Source: Minisyncoccota bacterium (GTDB lineage Bacteria; Patescibacteriota; Minisyncoccia; Phycocordibacterales; SBAW01). From it: 64,000 nt of DNA. Below, piece after piece: positions 33,110 to 51,154 of this stretch. The notes beneath the pieces are model-generated. The model had not been told where the DNA came from. It did not search any database and was given only the letters and a program-made list of their open reading frames with translations. The stretch lies in assembly GCA_018060985.1 (NCBI GenBank), contig JAGOUZ010000002.1, positions 26,396 through 90,395 of the forward strand. The letters run 5' to 3'. The position numbers were made by a program, and so were the translations under genes. Numbering within the stretch: the stretch's first letter is position 1; the number at the start of each line of letters is the position of its first letter.

Positions 33110-34411
33110 ATGGGAATGTCGACCTTTCAAATTATCGTTCTTGGTGTGTGCGCCGCGCTTATTTTAATTGGCGTCGGCGTCTTTGCGTCGTTTGGAGGTC
33201 TTGGCAACGAGGATACTGTAGGCGACGTAACGATCTGGGGCACCGTCGACTCTTCGATTATGGATCGGCTCATCAGCACCATGCTGAGCGGTGACAAGGC
33301 CTTTTCAGGAGTAGATTACGTCGAAAAAAGTCCTACGACGTATCATGCCGACATAGTTAATGCGATGGCCACAGGCAAAGCTCCCGACCTGGTGTTTCTA
33401 AGCCAGGAGGAAATCGGGATTTTTGAAGACAAGCTTCTTATCATTCCATATGGCATGGTCTCCCAGGCCACTTTTCTCAGTTCGTTTATAGACGAGAGCC
33501 AGGTATTTTTGACCGACGAAGGAGAGTTAGCTCTTCCGTTTATGGTTGACCCAGTAGTGATGTATTGGAATCGCGACCTTTTTTCATCGGCTGGCGTTGC
33601 GTCTCCACCCAAGTTTTGGAACGACTTTCTGACACTCGCTCCCAAAATGACTTCGCTCGACGCGGGGGCCAATATCACCAAGAGCGCCGTAGGTTTGGGG
33701 CAGTGGCAAAACGTCGCCAATGCAAAAGCAATACTATCGACCCTGTTTATGCAGGCGGGGGACAAGGTAGTCGTACGTAAAGGGAGTGGTGACCTCGAGG
33801 TCGTGCTGGGTGATGTGCCAACTAACGCACCATCAAATCCTGCCGAATCTGCTCTTCGTTTTTATACCGAGTTTACGAACCCCTCCAAGACCACCTACTC
33901 GTGGAATCGTACGTTACCACTCTCAACGACGGCTTTTGTAGCGGGCGATGTGGCAGTCTACTTCGGCTTTGCGAGTGAGTACCCAAGTCTTGCAGCTCGT
34001 AACCCAAACCTGCCCTTCGCTGTAGCTCGTGTTCCTCAGGTTGAGGGTTCTTCTATTAGAGCTACCTACGGTCGGCTCACCGGTATGGTGATCCCACGCA
34101 ACGCAAGCAACCCTAACGGGGCGGCACAAATCGCTCAAAGGCTCTCAAGTGCCGAGTCTGTTTCTACACTCTCTGCCTTAACGGGTCTGCCGCCGGTGCG
34201 CCGAGATGTTACGATAAAGACGTCAGACAACGCAGCTATGGGTGTCTTTGTAGAGTCGGCGCTTATTGCGCGCGGATGGGTAGATCCAGATTCCACAAAG
34301 ACAGATGCCATCTTTAGAACCATGATAGAATCGGTGGTAAGCGGCAGGCTAGACTCAGGTGGCGCAGTAAACGAAGCCTCGCGGGCGATGGAACAATTGC
34401 TGAAGAAATGA
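33110..34411 (+). CDS. Extracellular solute-binding protein (ABC-type, family 1-like) with N-terminal TM anchor; orphan (no permease/ATPase adjacent)
   Basis: 433 aa. SBP_bac_1-like features (…ESALRFYTEFTNPSK…DVAVYFGFASEYP…). Its stop overlaps the start of the first pilin-like gene (ATGA). Confidence 0.55.
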   Translation: MGMSTFQIIVLGVCAALILIGVGVFASFGGLGNEDTVGDVTIWGTVDSSIMDRLISTMLSGDKAFSGVDYVEKSPTTYHADIVNAMATGKAPDLVFLSQEEIGIFEDKLLIIPYGMVSQATFLSSFIDESQVFLTDEGELALPFMVDPVVMYWNRDLFSSAGVASPPKFWNDFLTLAPKMTSLDAGANITKSAVGLGQWQNVANAKAILSTLFMQAGDKVVVRKGSGDLEVVLGDVPTNAPSNPAESALRFYTEFTNPSKTTYSWNRTLPLSTTAFVAGDVAVYFGFASEYPSLAARNPNLPFAVARVPQVEGSSIRATYGRLTGMVIPRNASNPNGAAQIAQRLSSAESVSTLSALTGLPPVRRDVTIKTSDNAAMGVFVESALIARGWVDPDSTKTDAIFRTMIESVVSGRLDSGGAVNEASRAMEQLLKK

Positions 34412-34803
34412 AAAAAATACTTATTTTGCTGTTCGCTTTTTCTATACTTGTGCCATCCTTCGCGCCTTCTATAGCGTTTGCTCAGGGTGGTGGAGGTGGT
34501 GGCCCGACGGGTGGCATGGGCGGCAAAGTAACGCTCGAAAATCCGCTTGGCGATGTAGATACCTTTCCAAAACTTATCAAAGCCATTCTCGATGCGGCAT
34601 TTATTATTGGCCTGCCGGTAGCAGTGCTTTTTATAGTTATTGCAGGCTTTCGCTTTGTCTGGGCACGCGGCAACCCTCGTGGGCTTGATGAGGCAAAGCA
34701 CAATTTCCTCTATACGGTTATCGGTATCGGCGTCTTCTTTGGGGCATGGACACTGGCTAAGATTATCGAAAGTACCATAAGCGCCCTTGGCGTAGGATCA
34801 TGA
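34408..34803 (+). CDS. TrbC/VirB2-like (T4SS-pilin-like) small two-TM protein, paralog 1 (Gly-rich N-terminal segment)
   Basis: Signal peptide MKKILILLFAFSILVPSFAPSIAFA, a GGGGGGPTGGMGG tract, then two hydrophobic helices separated by ARGNPRGLDEAKHNF. Confidence 0.5.
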   Translation: MKKILILLFAFSILVPSFAPSIAFAQGGGGGGPTGGMGGKVTLENPLGDVDTFPKLIKAILDAAFIIGLPVAVLFIVIAGFRFVWARGNPRGLDEAKHNFLYTVIGIGVFFGAWTLAKIIESTISALGVGS

Positions 34804-35069
34804 AGCTTAGCGAACTCGTAAATCAGATAGTGGATCTTATTAACTCGGCAATCCCGGTAGTTGTTGGTGTTGCTCTGCTGTTTTATTTTCTCGCTATTAT
34901 CCGCTACATCTCAAAGGCGGGGGATGCCGGTGGAAAGTCCGAAGAAAAAAAGACCCTGTTGTGGGGCTTAATAGGTCTCTTTGTCATCTTTTCAATCTGG
35001 GGGATACTAAATTTGTTCGAAAATATGCTCTTCGGCTGCACCGTTTCCGGGCTTCACAGCTGTACATAG
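34800..35069 (+). CDS. TrbC/VirB2-like small two-TM protein, paralog 2
   Basis: 89 aa. Helix-loop-helix …IPVVVGVALLFYFLAIIRYI…KKTLLWGLIGLFVIFSIWGIL, similar to its neighbours. ATGA overlap with the upstream gene. Confidence 0.5.
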   Translation: MKLSELVNQIVDLINSAIPVVVGVALLFYFLAIIRYISKAGDAGGKSEEKKTLLWGLIGLFVIFSIWGILNLFENMLFGCTVSGLHSCT

Positions 35070-35157
35070 GCATAGGGTTCGCTCTTATTATCCACACCCC
35101 GATCTTGTAGGGCATGTGTGTGGTGCTAGTATGAAGACATACAAATTTAATAAAATT

Positions 35158-35511
35158 ATGAAAAAAACAGCACTTATCGGTTCTATATTTTTTGCACTTC
35201 CAGCTCTCGTTTTTGCTCAAGCTAAGCCAGAATTAAGCTATTTCGGAGAGTTCATTCAGGCCATTGGAAACTTTGTTAACATGTCGATACCGATCTTAAT
35301 CGGTATAGGTCTCTTGGTATTCTTCTGGGGTCTTATTCAGTACATCCGCAAGCCAGAGGCTGCAGAAGGCCGGAAGATTATGATCGCAGGTCTCGTTGGC
35401 TTGTTTATCATGGTATCTGTCTGGGGCATCATTTCTCTCGCACAAGGCATCTTCCAGGTAAAGGGCGACTCTAGCGACGTAAACACTCCAAGCATTCCGG
35501 ACCAGAAGTAG
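35158..35511 (+). CDS. TrbC/VirB2-like small two-TM protein, paralog 3
   Basis: Signal peptide MKKTALIGSIFFALPALVFA, then …IPILIGIGLLVFFWGLIQYIRKPEAAEGRKIMIAGLVGLFIMVSVWGII. Confidence 0.5.
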   Translation: MKKTALIGSIFFALPALVFAQAKPELSYFGEFIQAIGNFVNMSIPILIGIGLLVFFWGLIQYIRKPEAAEGRKIMIAGLVGLFIMVSVWGIISLAQGIFQVKGDSSDVNTPSIPDQK

Positions 35512-35529
35512 TGCGTTTACCTCTTACCA

Positions 35530-35784
35530 ATGGATGACATCAAAGAACTCCGCAACTTAATTGTTGCGGAGTTAATAGATCCAATACTCTATCTACTATT
35601 TGGCCTCGGCCTTCTGGTGTTTGTGTTTGGTGTGGCAGAGTTTATCTACGGTCTGAGCGCTCAAACCGAGGCGCGCAGCAATGGCAAAAAACATATGCTT
35701 TGGGGGTTAGTGGGTATGTTTATCATGATGACGGCAGTCTCGATTGTAAAACTAATAGCGCAGACCGTTGGAGGGAGCACCTAA
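35530..35784 (+). CDS. TrbC/VirB2-like small two-TM protein, paralog 4
   Basis: …ILYLLFGLGLLVFVFGVAEFIYGLSAQTEARSNGKKHMLWGLVGMFIMMTAVSIV, the same helix-loop-helix core. Confidence 0.5.
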   Translation: MDDIKELRNLIVAELIDPILYLLFGLGLLVFVFGVAEFIYGLSAQTEARSNGKKHMLWGLVGMFIMMTAVSIVKLIAQTVGGST

Positions 35785-46914: not shown

Positions 46915-48102
46915 GTGGGCATGGAATGTATAGACTGCGGAGCAAATCCGACCAACCATTACCACGCTTGGTTTTTTGGGAGTATAGACGCGGCCTTTAA
47001 CAGACTCCGTTTGCCCCAGCCTGTCTTTACCGTATATGAAGCGGCAACCATTCCGGTGCAACGAGTACTGACCAAGGGCTTTAAACTGATCGCGCCGCAA
47101 CTTATGCGGATGCGCGTTCTTTCATACAACGATGATATTGCATGGGCTGGTTCGGCACGCTCGCGGGTTGTATGGGAAGAAGCGAAAAGGCGCGGCGTGG
47201 CACTTAAACAGTTGGTGGTGTTTGGCACGTATACCGACCTCTTTGAGTTCGATAAAGATGGCGCCACCTATATCTATTTCAGTGTGCCTATACCGCCGAA
47301 GCTCCAGATCAAAGAAGTGTGGCCTGATGATAAGTCGCTTGTTAAAGAGCATTTTAAAAAAGCAGGCATTCCAGTGCCGCGGTCTTACAGCGTTTCAACC
47401 TTTGCAGAGGCCAAGAAGATACTACAAGAGCTTTCTCGCGTGTGTGTTAAGCCGCGTATCGGTTCTAATGGTCGCCATACCGGTACTCATATTACGACTG
47501 AGGCTGAACTGCGGACTGCATTTATGTCTGCCAAGAAACTTTGCCATTGGGTAATTGTCGAAGAGTATTTGGAAGGGAACTTGGGCAGAGCGACCTGTGT
47601 TAATGGCAAACTAGTAGGCTTTTTGGAGTCGCAGTCGCCAATAGTAGAGGGTGACGGGCATTCGTCCATACAAAAACTTGTTGAGGCAGCAAATGCTTCC
47701 CGGCCACAAGGCGTAGATGAGATTGAACTAAGCTCTCTTCACGAGATGCATATTAAGCGGCGCGGTTATACCCTGGAAAGTGTGCTCGAAAAGGGGAAGA
47801 AGCTGTCACTGATTTATTGGGCGGGGTATTCTTCTGGTGGCAGAAATTGGGAACGTGGTGTGGATATACATCCTGAACTTAAAAAAGAGATTGAGCGCGC
47901 TGCACAGGTAACAAAGCTGCCCTTGGTTGGGTTCGATTTGATCTTAGAGGATCCAATGAAGGGGCCCGATGAGCAAAAATGGGGAATTATCGAAGCCAAC
48001 TCTCTGCCCTGGATAGATCTCCATCAAGCAGCTCTGTATGGACCTAAAATCAACGTAGCAAGCTATGTGTGGGACTTGTGGGACGAATCAAATAAAAGCT
48101 GA
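46915..48102 (+). CDS. ATP-grasp domain protein (cyanophycin-synthetase/RimK-like fold), function unknown
   Basis: ATP-grasp features: …FAEAKKILQELSRVCVKPRIGSNGRHTGTHI…, …GFDLILEDP…WGIIEANSLPWIDLH. The listed start is GTG; the true start is uncertain. Confidence 0.55.
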   Translation: MGMECIDCGANPTNHYHAWFFGSIDAAFNRLRLPQPVFTVYEAATIPVQRVLTKGFKLIAPQLMRMRVLSYNDDIAWAGSARSRVVWEEAKRRGVALKQLVVFGTYTDLFEFDKDGATYIYFSVPIPPKLQIKEVWPDDKSLVKEHFKKAGIPVPRSYSVSTFAEAKKILQELSRVCVKPRIGSNGRHTGTHITTEAELRTAFMSAKKLCHWVIVEEYLEGNLGRATCVNGKLVGFLESQSPIVEGDGHSSIQKLVEAANASRPQGVDEIELSSLHEMHIKRRGYTLESVLEKGKKLSLIYWAGYSSGGRNWERGVDIHPELKKEIERAAQVTKLPLVGFDLILEDPMKGPDEQKWGIIEANSLPWIDLHQAALYGPKINVASYVWDLWDESNKS

Positions 48103-48182: not shown

Positions 48183-48266
48183 GCGTCGGTGGCGGAGTGG
48201 TCAATCGCACTTGGCTGTAAACCAAGCGCCCTTGCGGCTACGTAGGTTCGAATCCTACCCGGCGCA
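48183..48266 (+). tRNA. tRNA-Tyr (anticodon GTA)
   Basis: GCGTCGGTGGCGGAGTGGTCAATCGC-A-CTTGG-CTGTAAA-CCAAG plus long variable arm. GTAGG-TTCGAAT-CCTAC-CCGGCGC-A. Confidence 0.85.
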
Positions 48267-48296
48267 CCTGTTATTTTAGGTGCTACCATATAAGGC

Positions 48297-49415
48297 ATGA
48301 AGACGCTTCGTGCGTGGCTGCCTGTTTTTGTTGTACTCATACTTCTTGCTGCACCACTAACTGTTGATGCGCAGAGCTACTCACCTCTGGTGCAGTGCGG
48401 TGTAGACGATGGTGGTAATGGCCCCATAACGTGCGACCTCTGCGACCTAGGCAAGCTGATGCAAAACATCATCAACTTCCTCCTTGTGGGTATTGTGGTA
48501 CCTCTTGCGGCCGTTATGTTCGCCTATGCGGGTGTACTGTATTTTACCGGCGGCTCAAACCCTGGCCGCATTACGCGTGCACATAAAATATTTAAAAACG
48601 TACTTATTGGGTTTCTTATTGCCATTTCTGGCTGGCTGGTCGTCAATACTATTATGACGGTAGTGTTTAGTAAGAGTTTCTTTGATGGTGGTAAATGGTT
48701 TGAACTTCAGTGTGTAGAAACAATAAGGAATAAGTCCGATGGCGACGTTCGCCTTGCTGGAACTAATTTTAATGATCTGATCAATACTATTCTTCCTGAA
48801 GCAGAGGCTCCCGAGTATGTTCGGCCAGAGACTCCTCAGAATGTTGTTGGGTACGACTCTGCCGGTAACCCTCTGGTTTGTCCTGGAGGATATTCCTATA
48901 ACGCCGAGTTGAATGCGTGCTTCAAACCCGGTGGGGTTGGAGGTGGTAGCGAGAGCGGCGATGGAGGTGGGGCAGTAGGTGGAGGCGTAGATCCTGTGCC
49001 GGCAAACCCTGGAACGCCGGTCAGTCCAGGCCCCTTTGTTCCCGTACAAGCCGACTACACGTTTACGTTCAACAGCGGTATCAACAAACAGACTCCCCAC
49101 GCTTCTTTAAAGTTAACCTCCATGCTTAACTGCATGTCCAAAATTGTGCCCGGTAATGTGGGGCGCATCTCATCTATTTCTGACAGCATGATAGTAAATG
49201 GCACCAGAACTTGGGCGCAGTGCAAGGCGGGACAGTGTCAGCACGTCACCAACTCCTACCATTACGGCGGATCTAAGTGCGGTAACCAGTCATATGCAGT
49301 GGATTTTGGCGATGAAGAAAACTACCTCTCACTTCTCCAGGCGGCTCAGCAGTGCGATGGCCGCGCTACAAAAGAGAGCGACCATGTGCATGTACAAACG
49401 GGCACCTGCAATTAA
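48297..49415 (+). CDS. Fusion protein: signal peptide + TrbC/VirB2-like two-TM pilin-like module + Gly/Pro-rich linker + C-terminal Zn-peptidase-like domain (LAS superfamily, M23/M15-like)
   Basis: N-terminus TCDLCDLGKLMQNIINFLLVGIVVPLAAVMFAYAGVLYFTGGSNPGRITRAHKIFKNVLIGFLIAISGWLVVNTIMTVVF is homologous to the 34.4-35.8 kb pilin-like family. C-terminus has HYGG…AVDFGDE and DHVHVQ (H…D…HxH zinc-site pattern). Confidence 0.5.
   Translation: MKTLRAWLPVFVVLILLAAPLTVDAQSYSPLVQCGVDDGGNGPITCDLCDLGKLMQNIINFLLVGIVVPLAAVMFAYAGVLYFTGGSNPGRITRAHKIFKNVLIGFLIAISGWLVVNTIMTVVFSKSFFDGGKWFELQCVETIRNKSDGDVRLAGTNFNDLINTILPEAEAPEYVRPETPQNVVGYDSAGNPLVCPGGYSYNAELNACFKPGGVGGGSESGDGGGAVGGGVDPVPANPGTPVSPGPFVPVQADYTFTFNSGINKQTPHASLKLTSMLNCMSKIVPGNVGRISSISDSMIVNGTRTWAQCKAGQCQHVTNSYHYGGSKCGNQSYAVDFGDEENYLSLLQAAQQCDGRATKESDHVHVQTGTCN
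48432..48720 (+). repeat. Direct repeat copy 1 (~289 nt) = pilin-like N-terminal module; copy 2 at 49554..49842
   Basis: Long near-identical stretches by eye, for example GACCTAGGCAAGCTGATGCAAAACATCATCAACTTC and TTCGCCTATGCGGGTGTACTGTATTTTACCGGCGGCTCA in both copies. Confidence 0.8.
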
Positions 49416-49445
49416 TATGCAAAAACGAGTGCTAAAATACAGGCA

Positions 49446-50531
49446 ATGAGGAAGGTCCTTCAGGTTCTTTATGTTTGTGCAGGGTTAGCTCTGCTCCTTA
49501 TACCTGTTGCAGCATACGCACAGGGTCTTGTCCCATGCACCGGTGCTATGACCTGCGACATCTGTGACCTAGGCAAGCTGATGCAAAACATCATCAACTT
49601 CATGCTTGTGGGGATTGCCGTGCCCCTTGCTGCCCTTATGTTCGCCTATGCGGGTGTACTGTATTTTACCGGCGGCTCAGATCCTCATCGCATTGCACGC
49701 GCACGTAAGATATTTAAAAACGTCCTGACGGGCCTTCTCATCGCACTCTCTGCATGGCTCGTTGTTAACACCATTATGACGGTGGTGTTCAGTAAGGACT
49801 TTTTCACTGATAGCAAATGGTTTGAGTTGCAGTGTGTCTCCAACACAACCGCTACACCTGGCCGTCCTGGGCGTCTGATCAATACTACATTTGATGATCT
49901 TATTGGTGTCATTCTGCCGGAAGTAGACCCGCCTGAATATACACGCCCTCCAACTCCTGTTGTGGTTGGTACAAATTCAAATGGTGTACCCATAAGCTGT
50001 CCGTCTGGCGCAACCTACGATCAAAAAAACCACACCTGTGTTGGCTCAGCCGGGGAGGTTACCCAGCCAGTCCCTGTCCCTGCCATTACTCCTGGTCCAT
50101 TTCCGCCGCCAGTCACTCCCTCGGGCCCCATTAGTGCGGGATCTTGCGCTCCCAATCCTGGTGCGTTTGGTGCTAACGCCAATCTAATGTCCTGCATATG
50201 CGGTGCGGAGAGTGGCGGTATAGCCAGCCGGCCTAGCGGTTCAGATATTATGTACAACGACCCAGGTCGCAGAGCCTTTTCATGGGGTTTGTATCAAATT
50301 AATATTTCCGTCAACCAAATGATGTGTCCTGGCCAGCCAACCCTTAACTGCCCAGCTGCATTTTCTGGTAAAAATTATTCCGCTCGGGTTATAAACGAAA
50401 CGCTCTACGCTGCTTGTGTTGCTGCGGCAAAAAATCCTAGTTGCAACACTGCTTCAGCAGCGTATTTGCTCAACCATACGCCAAATGGTGCCAAAAACTG
50501 GAGTACCTATGGCAAGTGTGTAGGTCGTTAG
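49446..50531 (+). CDS. Fusion protein: signal peptide + TrbC/VirB2-like two-TM pilin-like module + Pro-rich linker + C-terminal SLT-type lytic transglycosylase domain
   Basis: N-terminal module about 85% nucleotide-identical to the upstream paralog. C-terminus CGAESGGIAS…AFSWGLYQINIS…AYLLNHTPNG matches SLT catalytic ES and GLMQ-type motifs. Confidence 0.5.
   Translation: MRKVLQVLYVCAGLALLLIPVAAYAQGLVPCTGAMTCDICDLGKLMQNIINFMLVGIAVPLAALMFAYAGVLYFTGGSDPHRIARARKIFKNVLTGLLIALSAWLVVNTIMTVVFSKDFFTDSKWFELQCVSNTTATPGRPGRLINTTFDDLIGVILPEVDPPEYTRPPTPVVVGTNSNGVPISCPSGATYDQKNHTCVGSAGEVTQPVPVPAITPGPFPPPVTPSGPISAGSCAPNPGAFGANANLMSCICGAESGGIASRPSGSDIMYNDPGRRAFSWGLYQINISVNQMMCPGQPTLNCPAAFSGKNYSARVINETLYAACVAAAKNPSCNTASAAYLLNHTPNGAKNWSTYGKCVGR
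49554..49842 (+). repeat. Direct repeat copy 2 of the pilin-like N-terminal module
   Basis: See copy 1. Equal length and same reading frame. Confidence 0.8.
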
Positions 50532-50554: not shown

Positions 50555-51154
50555 ATGAAAACACTCACTATTGTAGGTCTAACCATCGCAGTGCTCGTTG
50601 GTCTTGGTGTTTTTTATATTCTTTCTCGAACGCCATCAACGGGTGATGCGCCTACCGACACAGGATTGTTCCCCACAGGTGGATATCAAAACGATGTATC
50701 AGTAGGGAGTGGTGGGACAGATGAGCCTGGGCAAGGGGGTACTAGTGGGTCTGACACGGGTGGCGGAAGCATTCAGCCGATAACAGAAAATTATTTTGAA
50801 GTTCAATCGCAAAGCGGCGGGCTCATTCGAGTAAAGGACTTTCGCAAGAGCGCCACTACTGTCGAAGATGATGTAAACAAGGGGACCTACTACCTTGCAG
50901 GAAATGATTTTGCTACTGCCGCATATACCCTTATGTACATCGAAGGCGATTCGAGTTTTACCATTACTATCTTTAGCGAACCCATAGGCGAGATGCGTCG
51001 CAAGGCAGAGATCGATCTTCTCGCCAAGCTCGGTATTGCAGAGCCCGTAGCCTGCAGTTTACGGTACGCAGTGTTGGTGCCAGCGAGCGCCAATGAGATA
51101 TATGCAGGTAGGAACCTGGGCTTCAGCTTCTGCCAGGGGGCCACACCGTTATAG
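50555..51154 (+). CDS. Hypothetical membrane-anchored Gly/Thr/Ser-rich protein
   Basis: N-terminal TM (LTIVGLTIAVLVGLGVFYIL), low-complexity G/T/S-rich linker, then about 110-aa globular C-terminus. No recognisable family. Confidence 0.35.
   Translation: MKTLTIVGLTIAVLVGLGVFYILSRTPSTGDAPTDTGLFPTGGYQNDVSVGSGGTDEPGQGGTSGSDTGGGSIQPITENYFEVQSQSGGLIRVKDFRKSATTVEDDVNKGTYYLAGNDFATAAYTLMYIEGDSSFTITIFSEPIGEMRRKAEIDLLAKLGIAEPVACSLRYAVLVPASANEIYAGRNLGFSFCQGATPL

Follow-up and report, generated by a model that had tools for sequence, protein, structure and literature searches.

Predicted peptidoglycan hydrolases on VirB2-type pilin modules in a Minisyncoccota bacterium and related genomes

Two tandem genes with a common pilin-type module

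The 64,000-nucleotide (nt) stretch of contig JAGOUZ010000002.1 from a Minisyncoccota bacterium that we analyzed (hereafter the window) contains two tandem genes, genes 1 and 2, each of which encodes a signal peptide, a helical hairpin of the VirB2/TrbC pilin type, a linker and a C-terminal domain that resembles a zinc peptidase in gene 1 and a lysozyme in gene 2 (Table 1). A preliminary description, made from the sequence alone, had placed two tandem paralogs here, and exactly two forward-strand open reading frames (ORFs) are found at its coordinates. The database protein corresponding to gene 1 (P0011) is 100% identical to it over the C-terminal 147 residues. We propose, with a probability of about 0.66, that both products are extracellular, membrane-tethered peptidoglycan hydrolases that are anchored by a specific VirB2/TrbC-type pilin hairpin and docked at the pilin pool or pilus-assembly site. 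The preliminary description had already recognized a pilin module on two different hydrolase domains with shuffled C-termini, and this architecture is borne out by PF18895 matches, at least six cargo classes, the exchange of cargo at one chromosomal slot and a mosaic of N- and C-terminal parts.

A hydrophobic leader with A-x-A|Q at its end opens both proteins, and this site is also common to the pilins of an upstream array of four small VirB2-like genes. Hydropathy, this leader, the AlphaFold2 (AF2) model and a short Arg/Lys-rich hairpin loop (GGSDPHRIARARKIFK) agree with the order of a signal peptide followed by two transmembrane helices that had been read from the sequence. In the AF2 model of gene 2, helices at residues 2-25, 39-75 and 80-116 correspond to the leader and the helical hairpin, residues 118-170 and 214-226 are disordered, and the C-terminal domain is modeled with confidence. 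VirB2 is known to form a hairpin with both ends outside the cell and the loop inside. Because of this topology and the positive-inside rule, we infer that the loop of both proteins is cytoplasmic and that the two ends of the hairpin, together with the C-terminal domain, lie outside.

The N-terminal modules score 34.2 bits (gene 1) and 42.4 bits (gene 2) against the T4SS_pilin family (PF18895), above its gathering cut-off of 26.6 bits, and 14.7 and 21.3 bits against TrbC/VirB2 (PF04956), below the cut-off of 27.9 bits. All four array ORFs (34408-35784) match PF18895, three of them over the cut-off and one (35116-35511) under it at 19.3 bits, and the array pilin at 34408-34803 also passes PF04956 at 33.6 bits. 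The modules of genes 1 and 2 are collinear with the array pilins and 22-29% identical to them, so that the earlier view of one and the same module in both places holds at the level of the family and not beyond it. Compared with VirB2/TrbC pilins and the arrays described in Patescibacteria (PMC12102498, PMC10633639), the fusions have the same signal peptide, two-helix hairpin and basic loop, whereas free pilins are 80-130 amino acids (aa) long and the fusions add a tether and enzyme of 250 aa and four near-invariant cysteines. These cysteines (residues 31, 37, 40 and 130 of gene 2, at about 49536-49838, and the same in gene 1) stand beside the hairpin on its extracellular side, and free pilins lack them. 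They may form a disulfide staple between the two outer ends of the hairpin, reminiscent of the head-to-tail cyclization of T-pilin. The array itself is flanked by genes for a solute-binding protein and an SPFH protein, and no machinery of a type IV secretion system (T4SS) adjoins it. In one related locus (L010), a PF18895 pilin gene, truncated where the locus ends, occupies the corresponding place, and three small ORFs without annotation come after it. The array pilins are possible assembly partners of the fusions.

At the protein level, residues 1-213 of gene 1 and 1-203 of gene 2 are 58% identical (BLASTP, E 1e-75), and BLASTP shows zero similarity past these positions. At the DNA level, the best BLASTN segment (48426-48715 versus 49548-49837) is 80.7% identical over 290 nt, and its edges are sharp, with 47% identity in the signal-peptide DNA and 43% in the 220 nt downstream. 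Two earlier statements therefore need correction: the DNA identity of about 85% over about 289 nt comes to 79.9% at the positions originally used, and the genes do not diverge completely after the block, since a lower-level protein similarity continues through the linker and a small Cys-containing beta module up to residues 213 and 203. That the similarity reaches past the signal peptide was upheld, given the low identity of the signal-peptide DNA and the 58% protein identity over about 210 aa. The beta module (about residues 181-213 of gene 1 and 171-210 of gene 2) has two cysteines, is modeled with a predicted local distance difference test score (pLDDT) of 70-86 and resembles CBM_14 and cEGF weakly, below the thresholds; its role could be in binding. 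Terminator-like hairpins within genes 1 and 2 were rejected as such, as they represent the common MFAYAGVLY coding block.

Table 1. Window coordinates of the hydrolase genes, their parts and the pilin array.
Feature	Position	Strand	Description
Gene 1	48297-49415	+	ORF, 372 aa; P0011 (NCBI KBD50_01275, 'hypothetical protein', Ca. Pacebacteria metagenome-assembled genome (MAG)); pilin hairpin, linker, LAS-like zinc peptidase domain
Gene 1 signal peptide	48297-48371	+	About aa 1-25, ...TVDA|QS; hydropathy segment 1-28; predicted cleavage site
Gene 1 homogenized block (pilin hairpin, aa 44-140)	48426-48715	+	BLASTN; PF18895 match aa 56-119
Gene 1 tether	48716-49052	+	Linker kept with gene 2, small Cys-containing module (to about aa 213), then Gly/Pro-rich low-complexity stretch; BLASTP
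Gene 1 C-terminal Hedgehog/DD-peptidase (LAS)-like domain	49053-49412	+	
Gene 2	49446-50531	+	ORF, 361 aa; P0012 100% identical, NCBI name 'TrbC/VirB2 family protein'; pilin hairpin, linker, lysozyme-like domain
Gene 2 homogenized pilin block	49548-49837	+	BLASTN; AF2 helices 39-75 and 80-116
Gene 2 small beta module	49956-50075	+	About aa 171-210, CP.G..Y......C; AF2 strands; kept in gene 1 and orthologues
Gene 2 C-terminal lysozyme-like domain	50133-50528	+	aa 230-361
Gene 3	50555-51154	+	199 aa; N-terminal membrane anchor, Gly/Thr-rich linker, domain of about 110 aa with two invariant Cys
Four small VirB2-like pilin genes (array)	34408-35784	+	131, 89, 131 and 84 aa; 13 kb upstream of gene 1; PF18895 matches

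The C-terminal domains

The C-terminal domain of gene 1 has no match in Pfam, NCBIfam or PHROGs, and as a single sequence none among PDB sequences. Its homologues follow the pattern GRISSISDS ... C-x-H ... S-x-H-Y-G-G ... S-Y-A-V-D-F-G-D-E-x-N ... C ... N-H-x-H. Across 36 diverse members of this domain family, H316, H322, D336, H363 and H365 are invariant. C279, C314 and C353 are also invariant in the family, and R290 is highly conserved, with substitutions in several members; H322, D336 and H365 are the likely zinc ligands. An AlphaFold model built from 14 sequences is of moderate confidence (pLDDT 63.6, with 70-92 in the core). When the family profile was compared with PDB sequences, the top three matches were the Desert hedgehog N-domain, and the alignment falls on its two zinc motifs, SLHYEG and NHVHVSV, at a non-significant E of 0.36; there was likewise no significant match to a curated M15/Hedgehog model or any other solved member. 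The predicted fold and the His...Asp...H-x-H triad are those of LAS/Hedgehog-DD-peptidases, and on the basis of both we conclude that this is a predicted zinc peptidase of the Hedgehog/DD-peptidase (LAS) fold and a new sequence family that lacks a curated model. The same predicted fold occurs in M15 peptidases (VanX, VanY, the Streptomyces albus Zn DD-peptidase and phage L-Ala-D-Glu endopeptidases), MepA and Hedgehog N-domains, and the S-x-H-Y-G-G...A-V-D and N-H-x-H-x-S motifs of gene 1 align with the zinc motifs of Hedgehog. Unlike these relatives, the gene 1 family has an insertion between the His and Asp ligands, its own upstream GRISSISDS motif and a near-constant fusion to the pilin module, and matches neither Pfam nor NCBIfam. 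Of the zinc-site affinities suggested earlier (LAS, M23 or M15), a LAS, M15-like one is supported by the fold and the invariant residues. Peptidase M23 is not, the combination of H-x3-D, H-x-H and PF01551 that marks it being absent.

For gene 2, a word-index homologue search with the C-terminal domain alone returned nothing, and the family was gathered through full-length homologues, that is via the N-terminal module; these include proteins that are 39-70% identical in the C-terminal domain. Gene 2 itself scores 14.5-16.9 bits (E 0.009-0.05) against SLT_3 (PF18896, 'lysozyme like domain'), below the cut-off of 27 bits, and does not match SLT (PF01464). Among 17 aligned family members, 8 match PF18896, 3 match PF01464, 2 match Destabilase (i-type lysozyme) and 1 matches a phage lysozyme family. 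PF18896 matches are also found in P0116, P0106 and P0121, which are 39-45% identical to gene 2 in this domain. The family profile finds the i-type lysozyme 3ab6 (E 7e-4), with the motif 'SCIxxxES' on the catalytic Glu, followed by c-type lysozymes and alpha-lactalbumins. E255 (in AES), G281 and Q284 (in GLYQI) and several cysteines are invariant in the family; the AESGG and GLYQI motifs first noticed in gene 2, like the His and Asp positions in gene 1, could all be located and are invariant in their families. The domain is lysozyme-like in its predicted fold, with an intact predicted catalytic acid, E255. Two Asp residues after the Glu are conserved in the gene 2 subtype (D267 in 10 of 10 sequences, D272 in 9 of 10), which hints at hydrolase rather than transglycosylase chemistry. 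Gene 2 has the Glu-Ser motif, G-L-Y-Q-I, the many disulfide cysteines and the predicted fold in common with SLT_3, SLT, i-type/destabilase and c-type lysozymes, whereas its insert with a CP..F.G.NY motif is absent from the SLT_3 subtype, and the two conserved Asp residues are a further difference. Its earlier label as an SLT lytic transglycosylase is right as far as a lysozyme-like domain with SLT_3 relatives and a retained catalytic Glu is concerned; it exceeds the evidence in that the domain lies under the SLT and SLT_3 thresholds and its closest solved relatives are i-type and c-type lysozymes.

These folds raise the question of whether one or both domains could be binding modules, Hedgehog-N-like or alpha-lactalbumin-like pseudo-enzymes through which the pilin or the cell would hold on to peptidoglycan or some other ligand. 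Each of the two folds has a member without hydrolytic activity, Hedgehog-N in one and alpha-lactalbumin in the other, and both turned up in our searches; neither domain passes the threshold of a curated enzyme family. However, the full zinc triad plus an extra His in gene 1 and the catalytic Glu in gene 2 are invariant across diverse members, which would be surprising for a pseudo-enzyme, and sister cargo domains belong to bona fide hydrolase families (SLT, CHAP and NlpC/P60). We consider a purely binding role very improbable.

Spread, cargo exchange and the chromosomal slot

We searched 1.84 billion representative proteins with a profile of the gene 1 domain alignment that included part of the pilin hairpin, and obtained 234 representatives at E <= 1e-30 with this partly hairpin-based profile. 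The gene 1 domain has at least 160 members (150 listed matches plus homologues found earlier), and among the matches listed the hairpin lies upstream of the domain in 147 of the 160 proteins (92%), with a median linker of 67 aa; the exceptions are mostly fragments. In the species representatives of GTDB we found 54 loci with the gene 1 domain, 47 of them with the hairpin in the same ORF. All 54 are seemingly MAGs of the candidate phyla radiation (CPR) type, although the records of some (L041, L053, L054, L057, L060, L061, L064, L026 and L032) are labelled 'uncultured Gammaproteobacteria', 'Thermoplasmatales archaeon', 'Pacearchaeota archaeon' or 'Bacillota', and are probably mislabelled bins.

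The N-terminal module carries other cargo as well. Among its 58 long homologues, 55 match PF18895, and the C-terminal cargo is lysozyme-like in 22, of an unassigned class in 12, SLT in 9, CHAP-like in 5, of the gene 1 type in 4, similar to Hedgehog-N in 3 and NlpC/P60 in 1, so that the comparative search first suggested for this module yields at least six different C-terminal classes on homologous modules. The 12-member class (proteins P0031-P0084; L008 8991-9980) has no Pfam match, shows the motif GGTE..H....H.G...D ... E..HWD, stands at the position of gene 1 in locus L008 and may be a further type of zinc peptidase. Three other pilin-fused proteins (P0024, P0033 and P0058; alignment A8) have the motif TEGWPP..H..SLH.TGEAVD ... 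NHFHVS and match the Sonic hedgehog N-domain at E 0.005, which would make them bacterial Hedgehog-like peptidases on a pilin module. As hhalign found no relationship between the gene 1 family and the C-terminus of the L008 fusion and only a weak, motif-level one with A8 (E 0.038, probability 1.4%), we treat the three as separate cargo classes.

Many of the GTDB loci have two to four tandem pilin-cargo genes with cargo that lacks a Pfam match. Sets of this kind, with long pilin-fused ORFs that reach 707 aa, occur in L059 (65-5576), L026, L036 and L037-L058, one of them with a 3D domain. Locus L021 has a 934-aa ORF that matches both the pilin and the peptidase profiles, and one unidentified member of a 26-ORF scan matched Resolvase, Recombinase and Zn_ribbon_recom. 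Genes of the gene 1 type and of the lysozyme type, each with its pilin module, are adjacent in 13 genomes. In locus L020 (5020-6390), a single 456-aa ORF has a plain N-terminal hydrophobic segment, no detected pilin hairpin, and both a lysozyme-like and a gene 1-type peptidase domain, and is followed by a gene 3 homologue; that one polypeptide has both domains ties the two activities together in function.

The pilin-hydrolase genes occupy a conserved slot, in the order ClpB, (ATP-grasp ligase), pilin-hydrolase gene(s), gene 3, L33, miaA, phosphoribosyltransferase, ParB, RelA/SpoT and TopA, which is common to Pacebacteria, Adlerbacteria and other Paceibacteria-type genomes. The cargo at this slot differs by genome and can be LAS, one of two lysozyme-like subtypes, SLT or CHAP. 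In addition, both genes stand in the same order in relatives, and the duplication is therefore older than the species splits. Nevertheless, when we compared the 13 two-gene genomes, the two pilin blocks within a genome were reciprocal nearest neighbours in the window (85% identical), L002 (86%), L022 (79%) and L034 (92%). Mean identity to same-cargo orthologues was about 35-39%, and the blocks of the window have no more than 64-70% identity to their orthologues in L001, a close relative. High identity within genomes despite an old duplication means that the tract of about 290 nt would have been homogenized by gene conversion, or else kept alike by very strong co-evolution. A mosaic was seen in L003, where the N-terminal module of the second gene is nearest to L001 (85%) and the C-terminal domain nearest to L002 (76%). 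At the level of sequence, this makes the slot a clear case of a pilin module kept by gene conversion while its enzyme cargo is exchanged.

The nature of this slot bears on a plainer explanation, namely that the two proteins are housekeeping autolysins that remodel the cell's own wall for growth and division, with the hairpin as a borrowed anchor that has no link to a pilus or to secretion. Their core position among ClpB, L33, miaA, ParB, RelA and TopA and their vertical inheritance across families fit this explanation, as does the fact that the combination of muramidase and endopeptidase is normal for autolysins. MurJ is among the genes of the window, so the cell makes peptidoglycan, and the absence of nearby T4SS genes, both in the window and at the related loci examined, favours autolysins. 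On the other hand, a generic anchor is free to diverge, but no part of these proteins is better conserved than the hairpin (83-92% between paralogues with unrelated cargo), which is retained on at least six cargo classes and on 92% of gene 1-type domains; the tandem arrays of two to four genes with variable cargo also look more like a diversifying toolkit. We therefore regard autolysins with a borrowed anchor as unlikely, though worth keeping in mind, and prefer hydrolases that are docked at pilin sites. A mobile T4SS island or integrative and conjugative element was rejected as an origin of the locus, as the housekeeping synteny is kept across families and no VirB4 or relaxase was seen, and so was a phage origin, as there were no PHROG matches.

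Gene 3 and the neighbouring genes

Only 30 nt separate gene 1 from gene 2 and 23 nt gene 2 from gene 3, and because of these short gaps the three genes probably form one operon. Gene 3 has no match in Pfam, NCBIfam, PHROGs or PDB sequences, and its C-terminal domain ends in NLGFSFCxGA. Each of the 11 GTDB loci with a lysozyme-like gene has a gene 3 homologue directly 3' of it, and the 43 loci without a lysozyme-like gene have none; the link holds in both gene orders, and homologues are also found in L001-L004 and L007-L009. With CHAP or SLT cargo, the position of gene 3 is occupied by a small gene unrelated to it. Gene 3 is likely a regulator or inhibitor of the lysozyme and is a candidate immunity protein.

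This pattern leads to another explanation, in which the fusions are weapons that are displayed on a pilus or delivered by contact: they would polymerize in, or at the tip of, a VirB2-type filament and digest the host wall, with gene 3 as the immunity protein. The occurrence of gene 3 in 11 of 11 versus 0 of 43 loci, always directly downstream of the lysozyme-like gene, and its replacement by unrelated small genes next to CHAP or SLT cargo resemble an effector-immunity pattern, and cargo swapping and variable-cargo arrays fit an arms race; the gene 3 pattern and the cargo turnover favour weapons. Both termini of the subunits in VirB2 pili face outward. CPR bacteria are epibionts whose lytic enzymes have been proposed to breach hosts (PMC11665869). 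Nonetheless, no evidence points to incorporation into a pilus, subunits with a C-terminal load of 250 aa each would be difficult to pack, the locus belongs to the syntenic core and is no variable island, gene 3 is unlike any known immunity protein or lysozyme inhibitor, and the gene 1 enzyme has no partner gene of the gene 3 kind. On balance, weapons appear doubtful to us, and we hold to wall hydrolases docked at the pilin pool or assembly site.

Among the other neighbours, a tRNA-Tyr gene (48183-48268) lies just 5' of gene 1. A 395-aa ATP-grasp ligase (46915-48102, forward strand) lies directly 5' of the hydrolase pair, and in the same place in L003; it resembles the N-terminal half of cyanophycin synthetase (TIGR02068, E 4e-46, far under the cut-off) and may be an amino-acid ligase that works on wall peptides. 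Downstream, the ORF listed for ribosomal protein L33 (51093-51434) begins 62 nt within the 3' end of gene 3, and since its Pfam match opens only at residue 40, the true start is probably downstream of 51093. A tRNA-Trp gene follows L33 on the minus strand.

Proposed role of the pilin-hydrolase fusions

We propose that each protein would be exported by the Sec pathway and cleaved after A-x-A, and that the hairpin would be inserted with both ends outside and the Arg/Lys-rich loop inside, so that a flexible tether of about 100 residues would hold the enzyme domain on the outer side of the membrane. There, the disulfide-rich zinc peptidase of gene 1 would cut the peptide stems or cross-links of peptidoglycan and the disulfide-rich muramidase of gene 2 the glycan strand, so that the two enzymes might jointly open a hole in the cell wall. 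The conservation of the hairpin, which is strong and specific beyond what an ordinary anchor would need, is suggestive of a role in docking the enzymes to the pilin pool or pilus-assembly site. Cleavage of the wall could in this way be limited to the places where a VirB2-type filament or T4SS crosses the wall, a VirB1-like job performed in cis.

Several observations weigh against this proposal. VirB4, VirD4 and VirB6 were found neither in the 64-kb window nor within 6-10 kb of the related loci examined, where the neighbours are housekeeping genes, so that the VirB4-type T4SS genes that would be expected beside a pilus subunit are missing from these surroundings. In the literature searched, there is no experimental demonstration that PF18895 proteins of CPR bacteria form pili. 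A Foldseek search of the PDB with the full gene 2 model gave nothing significant, and T-pilus VirB2 (8exh_A) appeared at E 4.9 with a target-normalized TM score of 0.55 among many helical-hairpin matches. With respect to the enzymes, neither C-terminal domain passes any curated Pfam threshold, and the spacing between the His and Asp ligands of gene 1 is H-x13-D versus H-x6-D in M15/Hedgehog proteins, owing to a Cys-containing insertion of about 7 residues. Finally, homogenization is not universal, as the pilin modules of L011 and L014 are about 40% identical.

The closest known parallel is provided by the VirB1-like hydrolases of Gram-positive T4SSs (PrgK of pCF10, TraG of pIP501, TcpG and CD419; PMC12102498), which are likewise membrane-anchored and extracellular and open the monoderm wall by pairing a glycan-cutting domain (SLT or lysozyme-like) with one that cuts peptides (CHAP or LytM), much as L020 has both domains in one chain. 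In contrast to these, which have one N-terminal helix as their anchor, the proteins described here are anchored by a PF18895 hairpin, and each of the two tandem paralogues has one of the activities; their peptidase is of the LAS/Hedgehog fold and their muramidase is nearer to i- and c-type lysozymes. Genes 1 and 2 thus have the anchor and the predicted hydrolase domains of a VirB1-like protein, and lack the surrounding T4SS cluster. The concept of a pilin module that carries a functional globular domain has a further parallel, as PilB and PilC of Streptococcus sanguinis are reportedly modular type IV pilins with grafted C-terminal domains; these are said to differ in that the pilin family and its assembly are unrelated (type IV pili rather than T4SS VirB2) and the grafts are adhesive and not hydrolytic.

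A bolder possibility, which we find quite unlikely and offer as speculation, is that CPR bacteria arm their VirB2-type filament with enzymes: the fusions would co-polymerize with free pilins as tip or minor subunits, and the muramidase and endopeptidase would drill the host wall for an essential T4SS to reach the host membrane. If true, exchangeable cargo and gene-converted pilin modules would form a cassette system that fits the drill to host walls, with gene 3 protecting the producer.

Each component part belongs to a known kind, and the pilin part and the SLT part already appear, one apart from the other, in NCBI protein names. The pilin-hydrolase layout is widespread in CPR bacteria, and a description of it is seemingly lacking: a literature search of incomplete coverage, which gives absence of evidence only, found no account of VirB2-hydrolase fusions, cargo exchange, gene conversion or gene 3. 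Our analysis defines a zinc-peptidase domain family that has no Pfam model and a branch of disulfide-rich bacterial lysozymes whose nearest relatives are the i-type and c-type lysozymes of animals, and it provides concrete candidates in the form of two predicted enzymes with named catalytic residues and a putative inhibitor. CPR bacteria (Patescibacteria) account for a large part of bacterial diversity and spend their lives attached to other microbes. VirB2-like pilins and T4SSs are widespread among them (PMC12102498, PMC10633639) and are essential in the one species tested (PMC10633639), while most VirB2-bearing genomes are without a recognizable VirB1 wall-opening enzyme (PMC12102498). Pilin modules with wall hydrolases could supply this missing VirB1 activity in cis, or serve to breach the host.

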